A stretch of 64,000 nt of DNA, from contig OZ242351.1 of assembly GCA_965208675.1 (NCBI GenBank), forward strand, positions 480,001-544,000, written 5' to 3'. The translations under genes were made by a program, and so were the position numbers. The notes beneath the pieces are model-generated. The model was not told where the DNA came from. It saw only the letters and a program-made list of their open reading frames with translations, and ran no database searches. Of the stretch, positions 14,353-31,602 are shown piece by piece. Numbering within the stretch: the stretch's first letter is position 1; every line of letters starts with the position of its first letter. The DNA is from Candidatus Poribacteria bacterium. Its GTDB lineage: Bacteria; Poribacteria; WGA-4E; PCPOR2b.

Positions 14353-17300
14353 ATGCCAAAAAAAACACAACTTTCCCCCTTGATGGAGCAATATAAGCGC
14401 CTGAAAAACCAGTATCGAGATTCGGTTCTGCTCTGCCGTGTAGGGGACTTCTATGAGGCGTTCTTCGAGGATGCGGAGCTAATCGCTCGCGAGTTGGAGA
14501 TCGTCCTGACTTCGCGAGACAAAGATAAAGCAACGCCGATGGCAGGAATTCCGCATCACGCGCTCGATTCATATCTTTACAAACTCGTCAAGGCGGGCAA
14601 CAAAGTTGCAATCTTAGAGCAAATTGAGGACGCGAAGAACGTACCCGCCGGAGAGCTTGTAAAACGGGATATCGTCCGTATTGTAACGCCCGGTACCTTA
14701 ACGGATCCAAAGGTGCTCGATCAACGGATGAACAACTATTTGGTTGCCGTCTGTATACGTGATGAAATCTACGGATTTGCGTCGGTCGATCTATCGACAG
14801 GTGAATTTGCGGTAACCGAATTACAAGATGACGAGAAACTATGGACAGAACTACATCGGCTTGCTCCCAAGGAACTTCTGCTTTCTGAGGTGTTTGATGA
14901 TGCAGAGATTTTGGAGCGGATAAGGGTCGATTTGAAAGCAGTTGTGAACACGCTGCCGGATTGGCGATTCGCGCTGGACACAACGAGATCGGAACTGCTG
15001 CAACATTTCAATACCCTCTCGCTAGACGGTTTTGGCTGCGAACATCTCCCCGCGGCAATATGTGCGGCGGGCGCGTTGATATATTATCTGCATGAGACCC
15101 AAAAACAAGAGGTAGAACACATCCTTTCCATTCATACCTACACGGTCTCTGACTTCATGATTTTGGACGTGGATACACAACGGAATTTGGAGTTGACGAC
15201 ATCTATCCGCGACGGCTCCGCTAAAGGCACACTCTTGGAAACAATAGACCAAACTGTGACACCGATGGGAGCGCGCAAGCTTCGCAGTTGCCTGTTACAA
15301 CCGCTGCTTCAACCGGACCAAATTATCGCTCGTTTGAACGCAGTCGAAGAATTGAAAAATCAGATTGGTACACAGGAGGAAATTCGTGATTTACTAAATA
15401 AAATCTACGACATGGAGCGGTTGATTTCGAGAATCAGTTTGGGGACAGCAAACGCCCGTGATCTGCTTGCGTTGAAGGACTCACTGTATTTGATTCCGGC
15501 GATTAAAGATCAGCTTGGGGATTGCGAGACATCGTTATTGCAGACCTTGAACGACACACTTGACCCTTTAAATCAATTAGCAACGCTGATCGAATCGGCG
15601 ATTCATCCCGAACCTCCCATAACATTGCGCGAAGGCGGATTAATCCGCGACGGTTATAGCGGTCAGTTAGACGAGTTGCGCGCCATCACAAGCAAAGGGA
15701 AGAGTTGGATTGCGGAACTTCAGCAATTGGAACGCGAGAAAACCGGCGTTACTTCGCTAAAAATCGGCTTCAATCAGGTCTTCGGTTACTACATCGAAGT
15801 CACAAAATCGAATCTCCACCTCGTTCCCGATGATTATATACGCAAGCAGACATTGACGAATGCAGAACGGTTCATTACCCCGGAGCTTAAAGAACGGGAA
15901 GCGCAAATCTTGAACGCGCAGGATCAGATTCAAGCGCTTGAGCATAGTCTCTTTCTTGAAATCCGCGCGCAAATTGCCCAAGAGACGGAGCGGATCCAGA
16001 AAACCGCGGCGGTGATTGGGATGATTGATGTGATCGCAAACCTCGCTTATATTGCGGCTAAACATGATTACGAGAAACCCATTATTGATGAGAGTGATGA
16101 AATTATTATTCGGAATGGACGCCACCCCGTAGTTGAACGGCTGTTCACGCAAGAGGGGTTTGTTCCTAACGACACTTCATTAAATTGCCGCGGCCATCAG
16201 ATGCACATTATCACGGGCCCCAATATGAGCGGCAAATGCGTTCGCAGTGACACGCTCGTGTTCACCGATGCCGGTCTTGTTCCAATTGCTTCTCTTCAAC
16301 CCGGCAAGGTTGAAATAGACAGCTTCGCCCCAGTGAATTACCGCGTAAAGGGGCTGAACGGAAACGCGCGTGCAACCCATTTCTACGCCGGCGGGCGGCG
16401 CCGAACCGTGCGTATCCGCACGAGATTGGGTTACGAATTGGAAGGCACGCCCGAACATCGAATTTGGGTGCGCCAGCAGTCCGGCGTGGAGGGTTGGAAA
16501 CCGCTGGGGAAAATTGAGGGTAGCGATGCTGTCGCGATCGATTGCCAGATTGATTTGTGGGGGGCTAACGATACACTACAATCGCCGCGCGCAGCTTATA
16601 TGGAATCTCAAGTAAACCGCATTGAAATGCCGCGAGACTCGTCAGCGGACTCGCTGCCCGCCCGCCTTACGCCGAATCTGGCTTATTTGGTGGGATTGCT
16701 GGTTGGCGGTAGTGTATCGACCGATGGAGACGCAGTATCACTGGAAACGAAGGACGCGTTTCTCGGGCGAGAATTTAGACGCATAATAGGTGCGGAGTTT
16801 GGATACAGTAGGAAGCCAACCTCCCAAATAAGGAATTCCAACAATCGCGGAGGTGATTTTCAGATTCGGCGTTTCATTGAAGCCTTGGGACTGGCGCATA
16901 CTGCTAATGAGCAGGTTCCGGCGGCTATTTTGGGCGCACCAAAGGCTGTCGTTGCTGCATTCCTGCAAGGGCTGTTTGACATAACTAGCGATGGTGATGC
17001 AAAAGAGGACATCACCCTGTTTACTCCATCGGATACTCTTGCAAAACAGGTGCATACGCTTCTGCTTAACTTCGGGATCTTGTCCGCGTTACAGGAGAAA
17101 AAAGCGAGTCGCGCTGGCAACTGGATTTACGGAATTTCTATTACCGATGCAGACGCATTGAGGTTTTTCCGGCAGATTGGATCTAGAAATCCGGACAAGC
17201 AGCGCCGCGCCAAACACATTCGATTCATGGGTTATCCCAGAGTCACCGACATGGAACACCGAGACGAACGATCATCAAGCGGCGAGGGTTACGTCTTCGA

Positions 17301-18177
17301 TTCAATCGCGGACATAACCCCCGGTTCGGCAGAGGTTTTCGATCTCTCTGTGGAAGAGAGCCACTCGTTTGTCGCCAACGGCTTCGTGAACCACAATTCG
17401 ACGTATCTGCGTCAGACGGCGCTCATTACGCTGTTTGCGCAGATGGGGAGTTTCGTGCCTGCATCGGCGGCGAAGATTGGGATTGTGGATCGGATATTCA
17501 CTCGAGTCGGGGCGTCAGATAACCTCGTGATGGGTCAAAGCACCTTCCTTGTCGAGATGAATGAAACCGCAAACATTTTGAACAATGCGACCTCGAAGAG
17601 TCTGATTATTCTCGACGAAATTGGGCGCGGTACCAGCACCTTCGACGGGTTGAGCATCGCATGGGCGGTGGCGGAGTACATTCTGGACAAGAAGAAGATT
17701 GGCGGCAAAACACTTTTTGCCACGCATTATCACGAACTCATCGAGTTGGCAGGCAAATACAAAAACGCGAAAAATTTCAACGTTGCTGTCCATGAAGATG
17801 GAGAGAAGATTACGTTCCTGCGGAAAGTCGTGGAGGGAGGAACCGACCAGAGCTACGGTATTCATGTGGCGCGTCTCGCGGGGTTGCCGCTGGCTGTAAT
17901 TGCGCGCGCACAACAGATTTTGGAGATTCTCGAACAGCACAACCTGAGCATTGAGGGCGAGGATCGAGGGCGCCTGCCGAAGGCAGCACCCAAGACGCCG
18001 CGTCCCCGACGCCGAATGTCGCAGTCCGCCTTTCAAGATGACTCGCTCCAACTCGCACTGTTCACCCCCAAAACTCACCCAATCGTTCAGCAACTTCAAG
18101 ACCTTGACCTCAATGAAATGACCCCTATGGGTGCATTGAACCTACTGTATCAATTGAAGGCGAAAGCGGACGAATAG
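14353..18177 (+). CDS. mutS: DNA mismatch repair protein MutS (MutS1), intein-containing precursor
   Basis: GDFYE mismatch-binding motif, GRHPVVE, ITGPNMSGK|STYLRQ split by an insert, STFLVEM, DEIGRGTST, FATHYHEL and SYGIHVA. Confidence 0.97.
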   Translation: MPKKTQLSPLMEQYKRLKNQYRDSVLLCRVGDFYEAFFEDAELIARELEIVLTSRDKDKATPMAGIPHHALDSYLYKLVKAGNKVAILEQIEDAKNVPAGELVKRDIVRIVTPGTLTDPKVLDQRMNNYLVAVCIRDEIYGFASVDLSTGEFAVTELQDDEKLWTELHRLAPKELLLSEVFDDAEILERIRVDLKAVVNTLPDWRFALDTTRSELLQHFNTLSLDGFGCEHLPAAICAAGALIYYLHETQKQEVEHILSIHTYTVSDFMILDVDTQRNLELTTSIRDGSAKGTLLETIDQTVTPMGARKLRSCLLQPLLQPDQIIARLNAVEELKNQIGTQEEIRDLLNKIYDMERLISRISLGTANARDLLALKDSLYLIPAIKDQLGDCETSLLQTLNDTLDPLNQLATLIESAIHPEPPITLREGGLIRDGYSGQLDELRAITSKGKSWIAELQQLEREKTGVTSLKIGFNQVFGYYIEVTKSNLHLVPDDYIRKQTLTNAERFITPELKEREAQILNAQDQIQALEHSLFLEIRAQIAQETERIQKTAAVIGMIDVIANLAYIAAKHDYEKPIIDESDEIIIRNGRHPVVERLFTQEGFVPNDTSLNCRGHQMHIITGPNMSGKCVRSDTLVFTDAGLVPIASLQPGKVEIDSFAPVNYRVKGLNGNARATHFYAGGRRRTVRIRTRLGYELEGTPEHRIWVRQQSGVEGWKPLGKIEGSDAVAIDCQIDLWGANDTLQSPRAAYMESQVNRIEMPRDSSADSLPARLTPNLAYLVGLLVGGSVSTDGDAVSLETKDAFLGREFRRIIGAEFGYSRKPTSQIRNSNNRGGDFQIRRFIEALGLAHTANEQVPAAILGAPKAVVAAFLQGLFDITSDGDAKEDITLFTPSDTLAKQVHTLLLNFGILSALQEKKASRAGNWIYGISITDADALRFFRQIGSRNPDKQRRAKHIRFMGYPRVTDMEHRDERSSSGEGYVFDSIADITPGSAEVFDLSVEESHSFVANGFVNHNSTYLRQTALITLFAQMGSFVPASAAKIGIVDRIFTRVGASDNLVMGQSTFLVEMNETANILNNATSKSLIILDEIGRGTSTFDGLSIAWAVAEYILDKKKIGGKTLFATHYHELIELAGKYKNAKNFNVAVHEDGEKITFLRKVVEGGTDQSYGIHVARLAGLPLAVIARAQQILEILEQHNLSIEGEDRGRLPKAAPKTPRPRRRMSQSAFQDDSLQLALFTPKTHPIVQQLQDLDLNEMTPMGALNLLYQLKAKADE
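16237..17397 (+). mobile_element. intein (387 aa) with a degenerate LAGLIDADG homing endonuclease
   Basis: Starts with Cys (CVRSDT) right after the P-loop Lys; block B TPEHRIW; block F/G VFDLSVEESHSFVANGFVNHN followed by +1 Ser; LAYLVGLLVG and AFLQGLFD are LAGLIDADG-like blocks. Confidence 0.93.
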
Positions 18178-18228: not shown

Positions 18229-20893
18229 ATGGCACTGCATCCGGAATTCCCCGAATCTCCACATGCTTTAATTGACCCATCGGTGCGCTGGTTTCCAGCT
18301 GACGAATCGTTGCGTGACTCCCGTTACGAGAAACTCATCCCGCCGCTCGTCCATAAGGTTCGTGAAAAAGTCAAAGCCTGGCGGGACGGCGCCTACCGAG
18401 GAGCAAGAGAAACTAGCAAATCTCTTCTGAATTGGTGGTTCAACACACCTCATCTGATAGAAGATGCAGGCGGTGAAATCAGCGAGTTTCAGTATTACTT
18501 CGCGCAGCGAGAAGCGCTGGAAACTGTAATCTACCTATACGATGTCATCGGTGTGAAGGACAAATACGACCTCATGCGCTTCGACAGTTCCGGCGCAATC
18601 TCTACCGGGATGTTCGATGAAACTTGGCGGCGGTTCGTGCTGAAGATGGCAACAGGGACGGGCAAAACCAAAGTGATGAGCCTTGCAATCGCTTGGAGTT
18701 TCTTCCACAAGCTGTACGAACCCGACTCGGAACTCTCGCGCAACTTTTTGGTCATCGCACCAAATATTATTGTGCTTGACCGTATATATCACGATTTTCA
18801 GGGGCTTCGCGTATTCTTCGCGGATCCTGTGCTGCCCAACAACGGACTTGACGGTCGAAACTGGCGCGACGATTTTCAACTGACCCTGCATCGGCAGGAC
18901 GAGGTGCGCGCTACCCGCCCCACCGGCAACATCTTTTTGACCAATATCCACCGGGTCTATTCCAGCGACCAATCTCCGCCGTCACCCGATGACGACAACA
19001 CAATGGACTACTTCCTGGGCAGGCGGCCAACCGGCGCAACCACGGATTCAAAGGTAGACCTCGGCGATATCGTCCGGGAAGTTGACGAGCTGATGGTGCT
19101 GAACGATGAGGCGCATCATATCCACGACCCGAAACTGGCATGGTTCAAATCGATTGAGGATATTCACAACCGTCTATTGCAGAAAGACAGCGAATTGGCG
19201 TTACAATTAGATGTCACCGCAACGCCCAAGCACAACAACGGAGCGATTTTTGTCCAGACAGTGTCGGATTATCCGCTCGTGGAAGCCGTTTCGCAAGATG
19301 TGGTCAAACACCCGGTGCTTCCCAATGCGCCGAGCAGAGCCAAGCTTGTAGAGCGGCAGAGCGCCAAATACACCGAGAATTATGCCGACTATCTGGAACT
19401 GGGCGTTATTGAATGGCGAAAAGCGTATGCAGAGCATGAATAACTGGACAAGAAAGCCATCTTGTTTGTTATGACAGATGACACCCGGAACTGTGATGAA
19501 GTCGCCGACTATCTCGAAAACCGTTTTCCGGATTTGAAGGACGCCGTACTGGTGATTCACACGCAGAAAAACGGCGAAATTTCCGAAGCGGCATCTGGCA
19601 AGAAGAAGGAAGAATTAGAGAAGTTGCGGAAACAGGCGAACGAGATTGACTCGATGGCTAGCCCCTACAAGGCGATTGTCTCGGTCTTGATGCTCAAAGA
19701 GGGTTGGGATGTCAAGAACGTGACCACCATTGTTGGGCTGCGCGCCTACTCCGCCAAGAGCAACATATTGCCGGAACAGACATTGGGCCGCGGGCTGCGC
19801 CGCATGTACAGCGGTGAAGTTAATGAGTCCGTGAGCGTCATCGGCACTGAAGCCTTTATGGACTTCGTCGAGTCGATCCAAGCGGAGGGTGTGGAATTGG
19901 AACGCCGAGCCATGGGTGAGGGCACTGAACCGAAAATGCCGCTTGTGATAGAAGTCGATAATGACAACACTAGGAAGGACATTGATGCGCTAGATATCAA
20001 TATTCCAAAGCTAACAGGGCGAGTTTATCGAGAATACAAAAATCTAACTGAATTAGACGCGGCACGTTTCAACTTCACCCCTGTAACCTATCGGGAATTC
20101 AGCGAAGAGCAGCAGCGCGACATCGTGTTCAAGGACATGACATCGGGTGAGGTCACACACACCACACAGATGGATAGCGCCGGCGTTGCGGATTATCGAA
20201 GTGTGATTGGCTACTTCGCTCAGACCCTCATGAAAGATTTAAGGTTGGTCAGCGGTTATGACGCACTATATCCAACGGTCCGGGATTTTATTGAGAACCA
20301 CCTGTTCGGCGGCACCGTGCCGTTGGATTCTCCCAATACGTTGCGCAATCTGTCAGAGCTTACGGCATCAAAAACCGTTATCGAAACATTCAAGTGTGCA
20401 ATCAACGACCTCACAATCCAAGACAAGGGGGAGGCTCGGATTAGCGATACAATCAAGCTGCGGCATACGCGGCCATTTGTTGTCAAAGACCAACCCTATT
20501 TGATGCCGAAGAAATCTGTGTTCAACAGAATCATCGGCGATTTTCAATTGGAGCGCGACTTTGCAGTATTTCTGGAAAATTTCCGATGTAGTCTCCTTTT
20601 CCAAGAATTATTTCGCGGTAGGCTTCAAGCTTGATTACGTCAAGACCGACGGCGACATCGCCAACTACTACCCCGATTTTATCGTGAAGCTGGCGGACGG
20701 ACGAGTGATTGTCGTCGAGACCAAAGGTCGAGAGGATTTGGATGCCGCGCCCAAGATGCGCCGGCTGCGCCAGTGGTGCGAGGATGTCAACAGCGTTCAG
20801 GGAGAAGCCGTCTACGGCTGTGTCTACGTAGACGAAGAAGGCTTTCGGACATATCAACCTAAGACATTTCAGCAACTGCTGGATGGGTTCTAG
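18229..20893 (+). pseudogene. type III restriction enzyme Res subunit, disrupted
   Basis: MATGTGKT, DEAH, EGWD, QTLGRGLR and C-terminal YYPDF...ETKG nuclease. In-frame TAA at 19441-19443 (frame continues as LDKKAILFVM) and a frameshift near 20580. Confidence 0.85.
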
Positions 20894-22811: not shown

Positions 22812-22840
22812 CCCCCTGATAAGGGGGATTTAGGGGGTTA
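22812..22840. repeat. solo palindromic repeat CCCCC-TGATAA-GGGGG-ATTTA-GGGGG-TTA
   Basis: Same core as the inverted repeats at 25179 and 25567. Confidence 0.85.
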
Positions 22841-22964: not shown

Positions 22965-23432
22965 ATGAATTTAGAATCGTACATGGCTGAAAGAGTTGAC
23001 AACCAGGTTGAGAATTTTGACCAGCTTGCACGCCGTAACCAGAGAATATATAGTTTTCTGCGAATGGCCACGATTGCGTGCAACGTTCTCACCGCCTTTG
23101 CTATCGCGTTGACACTCGCTGCGCCCGCACGATACAAGATATATATGGGGCTGGGGGCGTTGGTCCTCTCAATGATAGTCCTTGCTACACACCAGATTCA
23201 AGAGTTCTACAAGTTCGGGTCGAAATGGGAAAAGTACCGAACGGTCGCAGAGCAGATAAAATCTGAAAAGTTCCTGTTTCTGAATGACGCAGGTACGTAT
23301 CGCGCAGGTGATACCGATTCAAAGAAACGCGCCTTCATTGAAAGCGTTGAAGGTATCATTCAGGGAACGGATAAGTCCTATTTTGCACTGATGATGGAAC
23401 CGGGCGAAGAACATGAAACACATTTACAATAG
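22965..23432 (+). CDS. DUF4231 / SLATT-like two-TM protein
   Basis: RVDNQVENFDQLARRNQ, two TM helices and W.KYRTVAEQIKSEKFLF; AAGGAG ribosome-binding site. Confidence 0.75.
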   Translation: MNLESYMAERVDNQVENFDQLARRNQRIYSFLRMATIACNVLTAFAIALTLAAPARYKIYMGLGALVLSMIVLATHQIQEFYKFGSKWEKYRTVAEQIKSEKFLFLNDAGTYRAGDTDSKKRAFIESVEGIIQGTDKSYFALMMEPGEEHETHLQ

Positions 23433-23448
23433 CGTATGAGATAAGCAT

Positions 23449-26076
23449 ATGCCACGACTAACCGAACAGGAACAGCAAGAGATTATCCGCTTCCTTGAGG
23501 CGGACAAACCGCTTCCCGACAAATACCGATTTCTACTGTTTGAGGACAAGCGCGAGGTGGAGTTAGTCTGGAACGGCAAGTCCAACACGGTCTGTAACAT
23601 CGTCCTCCCCTTTCAGTCGATTGAACTTGTCGATGAACCCCGCGCCGAAAAAACCTCCGACACGTCCTTGCAACTCGACCTCTTTGACGAGCGTGGACGC
23701 CAACGCAAGGGTTGGACGAACAAACTGATTTGGGGCGACAACAAGCTGATTCTGTCCTCGCTAAAGAATGGTCCCCTGCGCGAGGAGATTGAGGCGCAGG
23801 GCGCGCTCAAGTTAATTTACATCGATCCACCGTTTGACGTCGGCGCAGATTTCTCAATGGATATTGAAATTGGCGGCGATACCTTTACCAAGAAGCCGAA
23901 CATTCTCGAAGAGATAGCCTACCGCGACACTTGGGGAAAAGGTGCGGATTCTTTTATTTCCATGATTTATGAGCGGCTGATTCTAATGAGGGATTTACTA
24001 GCGGAGGACGGAAGCATTTATGTGCATTGCGATTGGCGGGTGAATAGTCTCATCCGCCTTGTTTTAGACGAAGTGTTTTCGACTCAGTTTTATAAGAATG
24101 AAATTCGATGGAAGAGACAGCCGCCACGTGGTGCTAAGGCCATCTCTAAGCAGTACGCTAGATCTTCAGACTCGATTTTATACTACACAAAACTACCTTC
24201 TGGAATATGGAATCGACAGTATAAAGGTTACAGCGAGAAGTATATCAAGACCAAATTCACACATACAGACGATGGCGGCCGCGTCTATCGCATTGATGCG
24301 ATTGGGGATTACTCTGAGAAATCAATTGCAAAATTTAGACAACAAGGCAAAATTTACGATTATCCTTCTGGAAAACTAGGACTGATAAGATACTTAGACG
24401 AAGCAAAAGGTGAAGTAGTAACGGATGTTTGGATTGATATAAACGAAGTCAATTCCCAAGCACTTGAAGGCACCGGTTACGCTACCCAAAAACCCGAAGC
24501 CCTACTTGAACGCATCATTAAAGCATCATCAAACGAAGGCTACCTCGTAGCGGATTTTTTCTGCGGCTCCGGCACCACCGCCGCTGTCGCCGAAAAGCTG
24601 GGACGAAAGTGGATTGCTACAGACCTCGGCAAGTTCGCCATCCATACCACACGTAAACGCATGATTGGCGTTCAGCGTCAATTGAAAGCCGATGGAATCG
24701 ACTACCGCGCATTTGAAATCCTCAACCTCGGCAAGTACGAGCGCCAACACTACATCGGCGTCAATCCCAACCTGCGTGAAGAAGAACAACAACGTCAAAT
24801 GAAACAGAAGGAGGAGGCGTTCATCGACCTCATCCTGCGCGCCTACGCCGCCGAGAAAACGGACGGTTATGCCGCTTTTCAAGGTGTGAAAGCCGGGCGG
24901 CTGGTGGCGGTGGGACCTGTCAATCTGCCCGTAACACGCTTGTTTATTGAGGAACTCATCTTGGAATGCCGCAAGCATCGAATCACGCGGGTAGATGTGC
25001 TCGGCTTTGAGTTCGAGATGGGGCTGTTCCCAAACCTGTTAGATGAGGCACGAAGCAAAGGCATTGACCTCCTGCCGAAATACATTCCCGCCGAGGTCTT
25101 CGACAAGCGTGCAGTAGAACGTAATCAAGTCGTATTCCACGATGTGGCGTTCATTGAAGTTAAGCCGATCATCTCCTACCCCCCTGATAAGGGGGGCAAG
25201 GGGGGTTATGTCCCTTACAATAAATCCCTAACCGAAAAAGCACGTGAAAACCGAGATAACCCAACCTCGGCAGAGCAGAAATTGTGGTACGAAGTGCTAC
25301 AAAACAAACGACTTGAAAATCTGAAATTCACGCGCCAGAAACCGCTAGATGAATATATTGTTGATTTTTATTGCGCCGAACTGATGCTTGCTATTGAGAT
25401 CGCCGGCGATACCCATGCAGGGCAAGAGCAATACGACAAACGCAGGACTGAAAACCTAAACAAACATGGCATTCAGGTAGTTCGATATACCAATACTGAG
25501 GTGCTGAATAATCTCGAAGGAGTGTATCACGATTTGCAAGAACGCATATCTACGAGAAAAGCCTCTAACCCCCCTCGCCCCCCTTATCAGGGGGGTTATG
25601 CAGCCTCGTCCGGTGGACTGCCAACCGTAGCGGTCGAATTGACTAATTTTTCCGTGTTTTACTCCCAAGACTCTATCGCCCACGCCGAGGAAACGCTGAA
25701 AATCAGGGGCAGTCGGGTCATTGTGGATAGGGGGCAAATCGTCAAAGTGAGCAAAGATGCAAACGGGATTGTTACACGCAAAGTATTGACACAACACTGG
25801 ACGGATTGGATCGATTATTGGTCGGTGGATTTTGACTTTGAGAGCAAACGCGAAATCATCCGCGTCCAACATCCTGAAACCGGGGAATCGGAGGAACAGT
25901 GGACGGGCGATTACATCTTTGAAAATGAGTGGCAGAGTTTCCGCACCAAGAAAGACCGATCATTAGAGCTAACCAGCGTCGCCCACGAATGCACCCCGGG
26001 ACGCCGCAAACTCGCCGTCAAGGTCGTGGATATTTTTGGGAATGATACGATGACGATTGTGGAGGTGTCGGTGTGA
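23449..26076 (+). CDS. type III R-M modification subunit (N6-adenine DNA methyltransferase) with an inserted DUF559 endonuclease domain
   Basis: [21 protein letters not shown] and DFFCGSGTT; internal segment ARENR...AEQKLW...KFTRQ...YIVDFYC...IEIAGDTH...RYTNTEV. Confidence 0.9.
25179..25595 (+). mobile_element. 417-bp in-frame DUF559/Vsr-like endonuclease cassette flanked by 29-bp inverted repeats
   Basis: Left repeat 25179-25207 CCCCCCTGATAAGGGGGGCAAGGGGGGTT; right repeat 25567-25595 AACCCCCCTCGCCCCCCTTATCAGGGGGG, a 28/29 match to the reverse complement. The span is a multiple of 3. Confidence 0.8.
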
Positions 26077-27629
26077 GAATCAGAGACATATACTTGACGG
26101 GTTTTAAGCGATTTACTGATTTGACAATTGAGGGTATTCCTGATACGGCGAAACTCGTTGTTTTAGTTGGTCCCAGTGGCAGCGGAAAATCATCTCTATT
26201 TGATGCTATAAATGCTTGGGGAAAAGATCATACATATAGCATCTATGACCCTGAATATTATAGGAAAGATGGACAACCAACGAATCGGGGTTCTCCGGAT
26301 TCGTTTAATAGTCTCGGCGTGAGTATAAATGCCGATGATTGCCCGTCAAATTTGGGGGAAGCTTGTTATATCCGATCGGCATATCGGCACACGCCAAAAT
26401 TCAGCGTTTCTACGATGGAAAAAATTGATGAAAGCCAATATTGGCGCCATGATGTTAATGCACGACTAAATTTTTCTTCGGGTGATTCTGAAGTGCAGAA
26501 CAATTACCAAAGAGTATATGGACGGATAATGGATGCAGTCTTTAACTCTCAAGTTCGTACTAATGAGGATATTAGGGAAGGAGTTATAGGCCAAGTTCGC
26601 GATTCTTTGCAATCTATTTTTCCCGACTTGCAGTTGCATTCTCTCGAAGATTCTGAAGGCAAAGGAACTTTCTATTTTGAGAAAGGAGCAGCTAAAAAAT
26701 ATGACTATGTCAATTTATCGGGAGGTGAGAAAGCGGCTTTTGATTTGCTTCTTGATTTTATTGTCAGGAAAGAAACTTACTCAAATGCGGTTATGTGTAT
26801 TGACGAACCAGAAGTACACATGGGATTGAGTGCTCAGGGCAAATTGCTCGAGGTCCTTTATAAACTGATACCTGAAAATTCGCAACTTTGGTTGGGAACT
26901 CACTCTATAGGAATTTTACGGGCATCGAAAAAAATCTTGGAAACAAATCCCGGCAAAGTCGCCTTATTGGATTTTTCCAGGCACGATTTTGACCAAAAGA
27001 CTAACATAGAGCCAATTACTAATCCTGACCGTAAATTTTGGGAATCTCTGCATGATAGTGTTCTTGACGATCTATCTGGCTTACTGGCACCGGAAAAAAT
27101 TATTGTGTGCGAATCAGGCCAAGGGAGTGACGGTTTTGATGCCCGTTGCTACAATGAAATTTTTGCTAAATATCACCCCGATGCACTGTTTGTTTCCGCC
27201 GGAGGAAAATCGGAATTAGATAAAATTATCCCTATACTTCAAACAGTCATACAAAAAGCCGATATTTTCGCGGTACGCGATCGAGATGATTTGCTTGATA
27301 GACGGCGTAATGAACTTATTCAGCAAGGCACACGTGTTTTGAACCGGACCAGCATAGAAGATTACCTGATTGATGACGAATTGCTGGAAATATTCGCCGA
27401 CGTCCATGAGTTATCTAAAAGCCAACAGAGGGAATTAAAAGGCATCAACCGAAAAAACGATTCGGCTAAGGCGAGGGCTGGGCAGATATATCAGAAAGTC
27501 AAATCGTACAAGTCAATTGTTGGTGAAACCAAAGAGGAATTTCTTTCGGATGTCCTTGCACCCTTGTTAAACCAAGAGTTAGCCGTTTATCAGGAATTGG
27601 AAGAAGATATTTTTGGAACCCAAAGTTGA
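26073..27629 (+). CDS. ABC/AAA ATPase with a C-terminal TOPRIM-like domain (OLD-like, putative defence nuclease)
   Basis: [20 protein letters not shown] and THS; C-terminal VCES...RDRD...IEDYL; GTGA overlap with the mod stop codon; AT-rich by eye. Confidence 0.75.
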
Positions 27630-27722: not shown

Positions 27723-28112
27723 ATGTCAGCAGGTATTAGGATATCTATGTTTGAAGTCGTGGGTAGTCCACTTTGCGTTGCTTCTAGCGATGGGCAGAAG
27801 GTACACGATCGCATCGCTTCAGTTCTTAAAGCAGATAGAAATGTCGCTCTTTCATTTCACAATGTCACGACGCTCACCGCGGCTTTCTTGAACTCTGCAC
27901 TTGGTCAATTGTATGGGACATTCAGTGAAGGACAAATTCGTTCTCGGTTGAAGGTAGAGGACGTGGAGACAGACGATTTTGCGCTTTTAAAGCGCGTTGT
28001 TGACAATGCCAAAATGTACTTCAAGGATCCGCAGCGTTTCAATCAAGTGATTCGAGAGACATTGGGGAATGAAGACGATGAAGCATATAGCGATGTGAGA
28101 CGACAACACTAG
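27723..28112 (+). CDS. STAS-like domain protein (DUF4325-like)
   Basis: CVASSDGQKV...LSFHNVTTLTAAFLNSALGQLYG pattern. Confidence 0.7.
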   Translation: MSAGIRISMFEVVGSPLCVASSDGQKVHDRIASVLKADRNVALSFHNVTTLTAAFLNSALGQLYGTFSEGQIRSRLKVEDVETDDFALLKRVVDNAKMYFKDPQRFNQVIRETLGNEDDEAYSDVRRQH

Positions 28113-30030: not shown

Positions 30031-30487
30031 CACACCGCTTTCGTTGTTTCCACGAACACGCCAAGGCCCGTAGTCCATCCAATAAAAGTTTACACATGAT
30101 TCGGCCGCTGCAGTGTCTAACGAAATCTGCGGGTTGAACCAACACCGGGTCGGTTAAAAAATCGAACGCGCCGCGGTGTACAAATAATTTACGGTCTTGC
30201 CATAAAGCCGTGTACATCGACATTCCGATTCCTCCAGCCCATACTTACTCCCATTTCACAACCTTCAGACTGAATGCTAAATCGACACTCGTCGGAACAT
30301 ACTGCGTTGGACTACACCCTCCCGTTAAAGAATTTCCCGGCGATGCACCCCGCACGGCAGGTTAATTATAATTACCCCCAAAAACTAGACAGTGTCTTAA
30401 GGTGGAATTGTTGCTGTCAAAACGGCCATGTTATGAGCCATAATAAGGCTCAGCAATGCCAAGAATTGCGAAAGGAGTTTGTTTAAC

Positions 30488-30775
30488 ATGGCTCGTAGAA
30501 AACAGTACGATAATCGATTCAAAGCGCAGGTGGCGATTGAAGCCATTAAAAATGAACGCACCATGGCGCAGATTGCCAGTGACTACGAAGTCCACCCGAA
30601 TCAGGTCAGGCAGTGGAAAAGACAGATTCTGGAACAATCACCCCAGCTATTTGCGAACGGACACACGCAATCAACTTCCGACAACGACCGCCTTATAGCT
30701 GAACTCTACCGGCAAATCGGTCAGTTGAAGGTAGAACTAGACTGGCTTCAAAAAAAAACTCGAATGCTCCATTAG
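30488..30775 (+). CDS. IS3 transposase OrfA (HTH)
   Basis: RKQYDNRFKAQVAIEA...YEVHPNQVRQWK...LYRQIGQLKVELDWLQKK; A9 slippery run at 30750-30758. Confidence 0.9.
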   Translation: MARRKQYDNRFKAQVAIEAIKNERTMAQIASDYEVHPNQVRQWKRQILEQSPQLFANGHTQSTSDNDRLIAELYRQIGQLKVELDWLQKKTRMLH

Positions 30776-30846
30776 CACAGAAGCGGCGGCTTGTCAAGCA
30801 AGAGCGCGGTGCTCCATCGGTTTCGAGACAGTGCGAACTGTTAGGG

Positions 30847-31602
30847 TTGCCGCGCGCTTCGTATTATTATCAACCCGCAGCGGAAGAATCGCCGGAAAAC
30901 CTGCTTTATATGCGTCTGATTGATGAACAGTACATTAAAACGCCGTGCTACGGTGTCCCTCGAATGACGGACTGGCTATGTGATAATGGCCACGCTGTCA
31001 ACCGGAAACGGATTGCTCGGTTGATGCGAAAGATGGACTTAGTTGCCATCTATCCCAAGCCCCGTCTCTCCAAGCACGGCAGGCCGTCGAAAAAGTATGC
31101 TTATCTACTGAAGGATTCAATTATCACTCGACCGGACCAGGTATGGGCAACTGATATCACCTATATCCGTTTGAACACCGGCTTTGTGTATCTAGTGGCG
31201 ATTATGGATTGGTACTCTCGATATGTGTTATCATGGGAATTGTCAAATACACTAGACGTTTACTTTTGTCTATCGGCACTGGAACGGGCATTGAGTTGTT
31301 CTAGCCCTTTGATATTCAATAGCGACCAGGGCGCGCAGTTCACGTCAGATGCCTTTACGACTCGGCTTGAATCGGCTAACATTGCCATCAGTTGGACTGG
31401 TGCTGGCAGCGTGTTTGACAACATTTTAATTGAGCGGCTCTGGCGGACCGTCAAGTATGAACATGTGTATCTTCACGCTTATGACTCAGTTCACGCGGTT
31501 TGGTGTGGCTTGAACAACTATTTCAAGTTTTATAATGAGGAGCGGCTTCATACGTCGCTCAATACTAGAACACCTCATGAGGTGTATTTTCAAAAATCCT
31601 AG
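30847..31602 (+). CDS. IS3 transposase OrfB (DDE integrase core), probably expressed as OrfAB by -1 frameshift
   Basis: WATDITYI, NSDQGAQF, DNILIERLWRTVKYE and YNEERLH. Confidence 0.92.
   Translation: MPRASYYYQPAAEESPENLLYMRLIDEQYIKTPCYGVPRMTDWLCDNGHAVNRKRIARLMRKMDLVAIYPKPRLSKHGRPSKKYAYLLKDSIITRPDQVWATDITYIRLNTGFVYLVAIMDWYSRYVLSWELSNTLDVYFCLSALERALSCSSPLIFNSDQGAQFTSDAFTTRLESANIAISWTGAGSVFDNILIERLWRTVKYEHVYLHAYDSVHAVWCGLNNYFKFYNEERLHTSLNTRTPHEVYFQKS

Follow-up and report, generated by a model that had tools for sequence, protein, structure and literature searches.

A Vsr-like nuclease gene between hairpin repeats, read in frame inside a type III methyltransferase, as a candidate non-splicing mobile unit

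The window studied here, a stretch of 64,000 nucleotides from a Candidatus Poribacteria genome, contains a DUF559 nuclease domain that is bounded by inverted repeats and read in frame inside the methyltransferase gene mod. We propose, with a probability of roughly 0.6, that this insert is a copy of a mobile unit that is selfish and does not splice: a Vsr-like nuclease is encoded between two G/C-run hairpin repeats, co-evolves with them and would nick its own hairpin. Comparison of flanking sequences indicates that the unit is mobile: the gene itself changes place, together with captured flanks. The nuclease itself would be the agent that moves the unit. The first-pass annotation of this DNA had already postulated a mobile unit of palindrome plus Vsr-like nuclease, and gain and loss in mod, relocated copies and the link between hairpin and nuclease all agree with it.

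The host gene mod (23449-26076, forward strand) is a single open frame of 875 residues, and the reading frame is kept across the insert, as first described. Its best PADLOC family is MTase_III (E 9.7e-107), the top Foldseek match is the EcoP15I Mod subunit (4zcf), and the Pfam methylase domain (N6_N4_Mtase) covers residues 121-400. The DPPF motif points to an amino-methyltransferase. Mod is thus a beta-class amino-methyltransferase with an adjoining, albeit broken, res gene, which is the arrangement of a type III Mod. The partner res (18229-20893, forward strand) is interrupted by a stop codon in frame (19441-19443) and shifts frame near 20560; it lies in three pieces while mod stays open, and the type III system is probably restriction-dead. 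A SLATT-like gene is found at 22965-23432, and an ATPase gene (26073-27629), whose best PADLOC match is AriAB (E 2.6e-32), overlaps the mod stop codon. With these two genes the region looks like a defence island. The window also contains a mutS gene (14353-18177) whose intein includes a LAGLIDADG domain (Pfam families Intein_splicing and LAGLIDADG_3), and two ORFs at 30479-31602 that resemble what we take to be an IS3-family transposase pair. Among related loci that bear a name, the nearest come from Candidatus Poribacteria. The named datasets in which the locus occurs are sponge metagenomes, and no RNA dataset is among those listed.

The left repeat (25178-25208, forward strand) consists of a C6-TGATAA-G6 hairpin and a G-rich tail; the right repeat (25566-25596, reverse strand) is its inverted copy, with one mismatch over 31 nt. 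Trimmed by one base at each end, the arms become the 29-bp repeats with 28 matches reported at first. Both are translated in frame, one as PPDKGGKGG and the other as a 10-residue peptide. A 7-bp stem with a 4-nt loop can form in either arm, but folding is only mildly better than that of shuffled sequences (z -1.2 to -2.1); the case against chance is made by recurrence in the genome, not by folding. Between the arms lies the DUF559/Vsr-like (EDxHD-type) nuclease domain alone (25225-25548, forward strand; residues 593-700). Pfam matches it over positions 2-108 of a 109-position profile (E 1.4e-30, 105.8 bits against a cut-off of 20.6), in accordance with the claim that a complete domain is encoded within one open frame. 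As the first-pass annotation had also stated, transposase, intein and intron signatures are missing: Pfam recovered no transposase family within the insert and no intein family on Mod, although the same scan found the MutS intein, and Rfam gave no intron or other RNA family at the locus. An intein or intron was rejected on these grounds. Chance or an assembly error was rejected on the recurrence of the repeat and on matching contigs from other runs.

The segment had been described as 417 bp, or 139 codons. The in-frame insert was recovered, but this span begins at a third codon position, and comparison with the closest linker lacking the cassette (P0056; 158 versus 18 residues) gives a difference of 140 codons, at 25179-25598. 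This insert has TA on both sides, which is the sole hint of a target duplication. Near-perfect inverted ends are not typical, most Mod-embedded copies having another right repeat, PPKSPLSGG. The linker comparison suggests that the peptide SSGGL (25606-25620, forward strand), which is PLSGGL in most homologues, is probably a worn remnant of an older right repeat. Imperfect inversion of the ends in most copies also argues against an invertible switch, in which the 357-bp interior would invert between the repeats and Mod would be switched off. Inversion would indeed stop the frame at codon 587, and the available part of PMC9881135 gives DUF559 proteins as overrepresented among the predicted targets of programmed inversion (odds ratio 14.3). 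We nevertheless consider a switch very improbable: the joints listed for four runs, at the level of contigs only, include no strand-changing one, and the 36 linkers parsed in this phylum include no inverted interior.

A model of the isolated domain (120 residues) reached a pLDDT of 91.6. Foldseek with this model returned 3hrl (E 2.3e-6) and 3r3p (E 1.4e-4), and Vsr (1cw0) only at E 0.23; the predicted fold resembles 3hrl and I-Bth0305I. According to profile alignment and the accessible text of PMC3239194, E609, D639, position 652, H656 and D663 correspond to Vsr E25, D51, H64, H69 and D97. E609, D639, H656 and D663 are kept. The x position of EDxHD, aligned to Asn208 of I-Bth0305I and His64 of Vsr, is Ala652 here (codon 25402-25404, forward strand), so that the motif reads EIAGDTH, while Asp occupies it in 54 of 54 other Mod-embedded copies. 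The alanine codon was seen again in a zero-difference contig from a second study (depth 2). Since position 652 is the most variable among the five active-site positions, loss of activity is likely but not certain, and the window nuclease is probably weakened or dead through the Asp to Ala change. Median dN/dS was 0.074 for free copies (55 of 78 pairs usable) and 0.083 for fused ones (16 of 45), approximate values taken from unsaturated pairs only (dS 1-1.8). These ratios indicate that the domain is under purifying selection, both fused and free. Family-wide domestication was rejected in view of this selection and of the Asp in the other copies. Thus, of the two original interpretations of EIAGDTH, decay stands for this lineage and domestication falls. 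Homing endonucleases pass through a cycle of gain, decay and loss; with the window copy and res both decaying, this locus reads as the decay step of such a cycle.

The state of the linker was then compared among the 120 best hits to Mod residues 400-875. Sixty of them carry DUF559 and 60 have none, a ratio that is not a frequency because the query contained the insert. The domain lies at this very linker in 55 of the 120, window included (52 by pattern, three by eye), and these copies, where named, span seven phyla. One Mod (P0057) carries DUF559 at a second, repeat-flanked site of the same family. Four others (P0091, P0095, P0119, P0120) have it in an intein-like insert adjoining the GSGTT motif; no intein family was detected at E 1e-6 in the two of these that were scanned. 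Mods without the cassette have linkers of 11-71 residues where parsed, some with clear repeat scars such as YPPDKSTQGGLPTVA. This variation in length suggests that the insert site is a surface loop; the full-length AlphaFold model, with a mean pLDDT of 53 and values below 50 for the host scaffold around the insert, was not used for this assignment.

The insert is rare in this phylum, and 16 of 16 Mods of relatives are without it. The 36 distinct linkers parsed in this phylum comprise one full copy, 30 linkers of 51-54 nt and five longer scars; another full copy (L165) lies beyond these 36. The first-pass annotation had called for such an alignment, and its refuting outcome, namely that all homologous Mods carry the domain, did not occur. 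The commonest state is 51 nt (25 of 36). The corresponding 17-residue PGKxG linkers were not counted as worn scars, being the commonest state and possibly a native loop. Loss is seen in assemblies from other runs: an X6 contig that matches the window letter for letter over 25002-25191 continues at 25627 after 24 different letters, so that 137 codons are lost in frame, and a more distant relative in run X1 skips 25211-25613 in frame. One locus (L167) has two tandem mod copies with different middle regions, neither with the cassette.

On a tree of the Mod flanks (116 of the 120 rows), presence of the domain changes at least 10 times. The nuclease mostly tracks its Mod: in 42 of 54 cases the nearest Mod ranks among the five closest neighbours by nuclease. 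Some linkers seem to have been exchanged. P0044 has the linker type of the window, with a backbone nearest to P0082, which lacks the cassette (191/198 identical positions, versus 181/198 to the window). Clade tests rejected the IISY-type linkers (p-AU 0.012) and the 17-residue linkers (2.5e-6), and did not reject the HIH type (0.17). Two of four allele-swap tests, on P0003 (p-AU 0.17) and P0053 (0.16), were not significant; groups for the swap tests, as for the free-copy clade test below, were named after the trees had been seen. So the insertion at this linker is old and has been carried along with mod, with many losses and some exchange between alleles. The idea that the element colonises genes as a tolerated domain agrees with its in-frame hosts, but its presence here is not a fresh event, since it is common to Mods of seven phyla.

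The P0044 mismatch and the two rejected linker clades are also what classical homing would produce, the nuclease cutting a mod linker without the cassette and gene conversion copying the cassette in, with repeats as flexible linkers and free copies as by-products. I-Bth0305I has a matching fold and agrees at four of the five active-site positions. However, general recombination between mod alleles accounts equally for the swaps, and alleles without the cassette dominate. The 120-residue model is without the N-terminal DNA-binding region described for I-Bth0305I in the part of PMC3239194 available, and there is no room for a NUMOD region between repeat and domain. Moreover, 17 of the 20 intact cognate nucleases in this phylum are free, in short frames, and under purifying selection away from mod. 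We therefore regard homing as quite unlikely.

The mobile-unit reading predicts a bond between repeat and nuclease. In the window's genome (4.89 Mb), the scan that had been suggested recovered 56 copies of a loose repeat pattern, with 0 in three of three block shuffles. One solo copy lies 640 bp upstream of mod (22812-22837, forward strand), and belongs to a subfamily whose members at other places in the genome have the same flanks. Solo repeats (G000:C1, for example 936465, 961025, 4719049; 502813, 2351036, 4293608) form subfamilies in which 20-40 bases to either side of the repeat are common to the members, so that the units are longer, and non-autonomous. The insert contains the only full DUF559 of the genome; a second Pfam match is weak, partial and located in a 1595-residue frame, and tblastn detected no further decayed copies in this genome.

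Beyond this genome, 133 DUF559 loci were confirmed and 80 kept, 70 of them with full flanks, and compared with 809 control windows. The hairpin motif, derived from an earlier subset of loci, was present upstream of 67, downstream of 65 and on both sides of 63 of the 70 loci, 30 of which, the closest, form one clade, as compared with 30 of the 809 controls. Distant loci (39-50% identical) had it on both sides in 37 of 41 cases. A sequence-blind hairpin search gave 46 loci upstream, 43 downstream and 35 on both sides (controls, 55/809). Left and right repeats of one locus were more alike than permuted pairs (0.80 versus 0.54 over 62 loci; maximum of 1000 permutations 0.60), and repeat similarity tracked protein similarity across 35 distant loci (rho 0.57, against a maximum of 0.28 in permutations). 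Besides Mod, the domain is read in frame within HsdR (L115, L123, L133) and, in L103, within an inositol monophosphatase frame. The association between repeat and DUF559, including its occurrence in unrelated hosts, is thus as first suspected. It is not universal for DUF559, as no hairpins were found at four full DUF559 hits in relatives (L004, L008, L009, L012). In three genomes of the same genus (L010, L011, L013), a second DUF559 subfamily lies between CCTCCTT..AAGGAGG hairpins. Longer-loop repeats of the CCCCCTTRCYAAGGGGG type are common in the window's genome, which has no DUF559 gene of this second subfamily.

Free-standing copies were placed on a tree together with the fused ones, and the two kinds are intermingled: with 44 rows chosen from 111, fused copies were rejected as one clade (p-AU 1.3e-4). 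In the LG+G4 tree, the twelve free copies from Poribacteria fall within the Mod-embedded ones (100/98). Under a mixture model with a single outgroup, the nuclease tree collapses at its base, and the one-clade test of the 12 free copies is not significant (p-AU 0.057). Therefore the direction from Mod to free is not fixed by the tree alone, and was taken from the flanks.

In L166, a mod without the cassette is followed by the same ATPase and DUF4325 genes as in the window, and then by the cassette. DUF4325 and the cassette are kept in L171, L174 and L179, with only a collapsed mod remnant in L174. Remote cassettes (L169, L170, L172, L173, L176, L177, L178) have at their beginning a fragment from the 3' end of the DUF4325 (STAS-like) gene, which supplies their start codon. 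In the window, this gene occupies 27723-28112, and 28062-28094 (forward strand) matches the flank of L173 at 29 of 33 positions. Three genomes (G124, G127, G138) have the whole DUF4325 gene far from the cassette. Free frames retain an 11-residue peptide like the Mod linker. L177 and L173 share the same host gene order with the cassette at different junctions; in L170 the cassette is at the first junction, and bare repeats are at the second, which is the cassette site in L173. L164 contains four tandem copies. These loci overlap with the set used for the hairpin test, so that the two sets are not additive. An AAA ATPase gene beside the cassette (L164, L066, L067) has repeats of its own at its borders and is absent from L015, as if it were cargo. 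Direct copies of the right-hand repeat often delimit the pieces that have moved. At intergenic sites, neither fixed element ends nor a target duplication could be defined, the ends varying between filled sites. Hops between repeats could be plain host recombination.

Whether the nuclease spreads the repeats was approached by counting. Among 176 genomes, the 16-mer repeat occurs in 104 and an intact cognate nuclease (at least 163 bits) in 20, three of these in Mod. Median repeat counts with and without an intact cognate were 63 and 16 for genus g14 (13 versus 49 genomes), and 158 and 80 for g5 (4 versus 14). Related genomes are not independent, so that p values given in this work overstate significance. 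At least 100 repeat copies without an intact cognate were found in 3 of 49 g14 and 4 of 14 g5 genomes. Such genomes fit either past activity followed by loss, or another mover.

The many repeat-rich genomes without the cognate nuclease lend some weight to DUF559 being a passenger, kept for a host job such as the repair of mismatches or hairpins, with repeats that are spread by another enzyme and gather round it while host recombination shuffles the gene. Bare repeats in L170 at the site of the L173 cassette point the same way, and purifying selection fits a host role equally. In the accessible part of PMC12907096, VsrA, a Caulobacter DUF559 protein, causes an SOS response in vivo and is proposed as a repair enzyme. 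We find this explanation doubtful in view of the patchy presence of the nuclease (20/176), its repeated in-frame loss, and a repeat variant that follows the nuclease subfamily across phyla. To our knowledge, T:G mismatch repair has no obvious use beside an amino-methyltransferase such as Mod. As for another mover, the four Y1_Tnp matches of the genome lie 28-82 kb from the nearest copy of the repeat, and the two with inspected flanks have other repeats; a RAYT as the flanked partner was rejected because of this distance. These two Y1 transposase genes (G000:C1:2029870 and 3522752; L050 and L051) are flanked by their own, different palindromic repeats, and are probable RAYT/REP pairs.

Returning to the mobile unit, the comparisons show that the cassette entered one variable loop of the Mod family, accompanied mod from phylum to phylum as an additional, translated domain, and was lost again in frame, with repeat scars left behind. 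It also stands free at many intergenic sites, with DNA brought from its previous site. As to mechanism, the nuclease would nick its hairpin or the DNA next to it. Recombinational repair may then place copies of the solo repeat at new sites, and repeat copies recombining with one another could duplicate, excise or re-seat the cassette, also into other mod alleles. The window copy is read as a late stage, with its nuclease probably weakened or dead, res broken and sister alleles already deleted. A broader claim, to which we give slightly less than an even chance, is that of a widespread autonomous DNA whose Vsr-like nuclease moves hairpin repeats and its own gene, and which cycles between a state inside proteins, with restriction-modification genes as vehicles, and a free state. 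If true, no transposase, intron or intein would be needed, restriction-modification genes would carry the unit between phyla, and the free state would seed repeats.

Among known systems, REPtrons (REP/REPIN with RAYT), as presented in the available parts of PMC3116915 and PMC3733652, share a nuclease gene flanked by palindromes, tens to hundreds of solo repeats, and co-variation. Dispersed solo repeats cognate to the enzyme flanks, which characterise REPtrons, are found here too (56 copies, with co-variation). REPtrons differ in having an HUH tyrosine transposase instead of a Vsr-like PD-(D/E)xK fold, and GTAG/CGTC ends, which are absent here from arms and solo copies. Furthermore, the nuclease gene here is itself relocated and can form part of the reading frame of host proteins, whereas RAYT genes are not self-mobile according to the accessible text of PMC3116915. 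The proposed analogy to REP/RAYT thus holds for repeats with a co-varying nuclease and breaks down at the relocation of the nuclease gene itself. EDxHD homing endonucleases such as I-Bth0305I (PMC3239194, PMC2677866, both in part) share the fold, the active-site layout (with Ala at the x position of the window copy), and gain, decay and loss among alleles; here there is no intron, intein or NUMOD region, and instead the unit has a genome-wide repeat on both sides and occupies many sites that are unrelated. Intragenic REPs and the palindromic elements of Rickettsia (from excerpts of PMC3733652 and PMC3184786) are likewise palindromic DNA translated in frame as a tolerated peptide. Those inserts are of 20-80 residues without an enzyme, as opposed to a whole nuclease domain here, although the scar alleles do fit. 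Vsr and Caulobacter VsrA (PMC12907096, in part) share the DUF559/Vsr superfamily and a link to methyltransferases, but are partnered with a 5mC enzyme, while the present domain is fused inside an amino-methyltransferase, patchy and mobile. Insertion sequences and MITEs involve a transposase, fixed ends and target duplication; none of these was found here, and ends vary between sites. In the literature searched, mostly open-access and including the available parts of PMC3424549 and 10.1101/2022.08.31.505936, no description of repeat-flanked DUF559 elements was found; supplements of PMC9881135 and PMC3733652 may bear on this point.

Altogether, the unit is outside REPtrons, insertion sequences and intron or intein homing endonucleases, and works most like a REPtron with a Vsr-like enzyme. 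This locus contributes an exit from a host gene that could be traced, hops over short distances, and a natural copy that looks inactive. For the spread of short bacterial palindromic repeat families, RAYT/REP is the main answer so far. Possible relatives of the present repeat are the short, G/C-rich, dispersed hairpin repeats, mover unknown, reportedly described in cyanobacteria by Elhai in 2008, and in Caulobacter, as the CIR, by Chen and Shapiro in 2003. The locus offers a candidate repeat-spreading enzyme of another fold, testable with natural sequences. It also gives one element a traced route, from inside mod to behind a neighbouring gene and on to distant operons, tagged by captured DNA, and a route into coding sequence without splicing. 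Finally, annotated 'DUF559-methylase fusions' and proline/glycine-rich loops can be the remains of an element rather than evolved domains.
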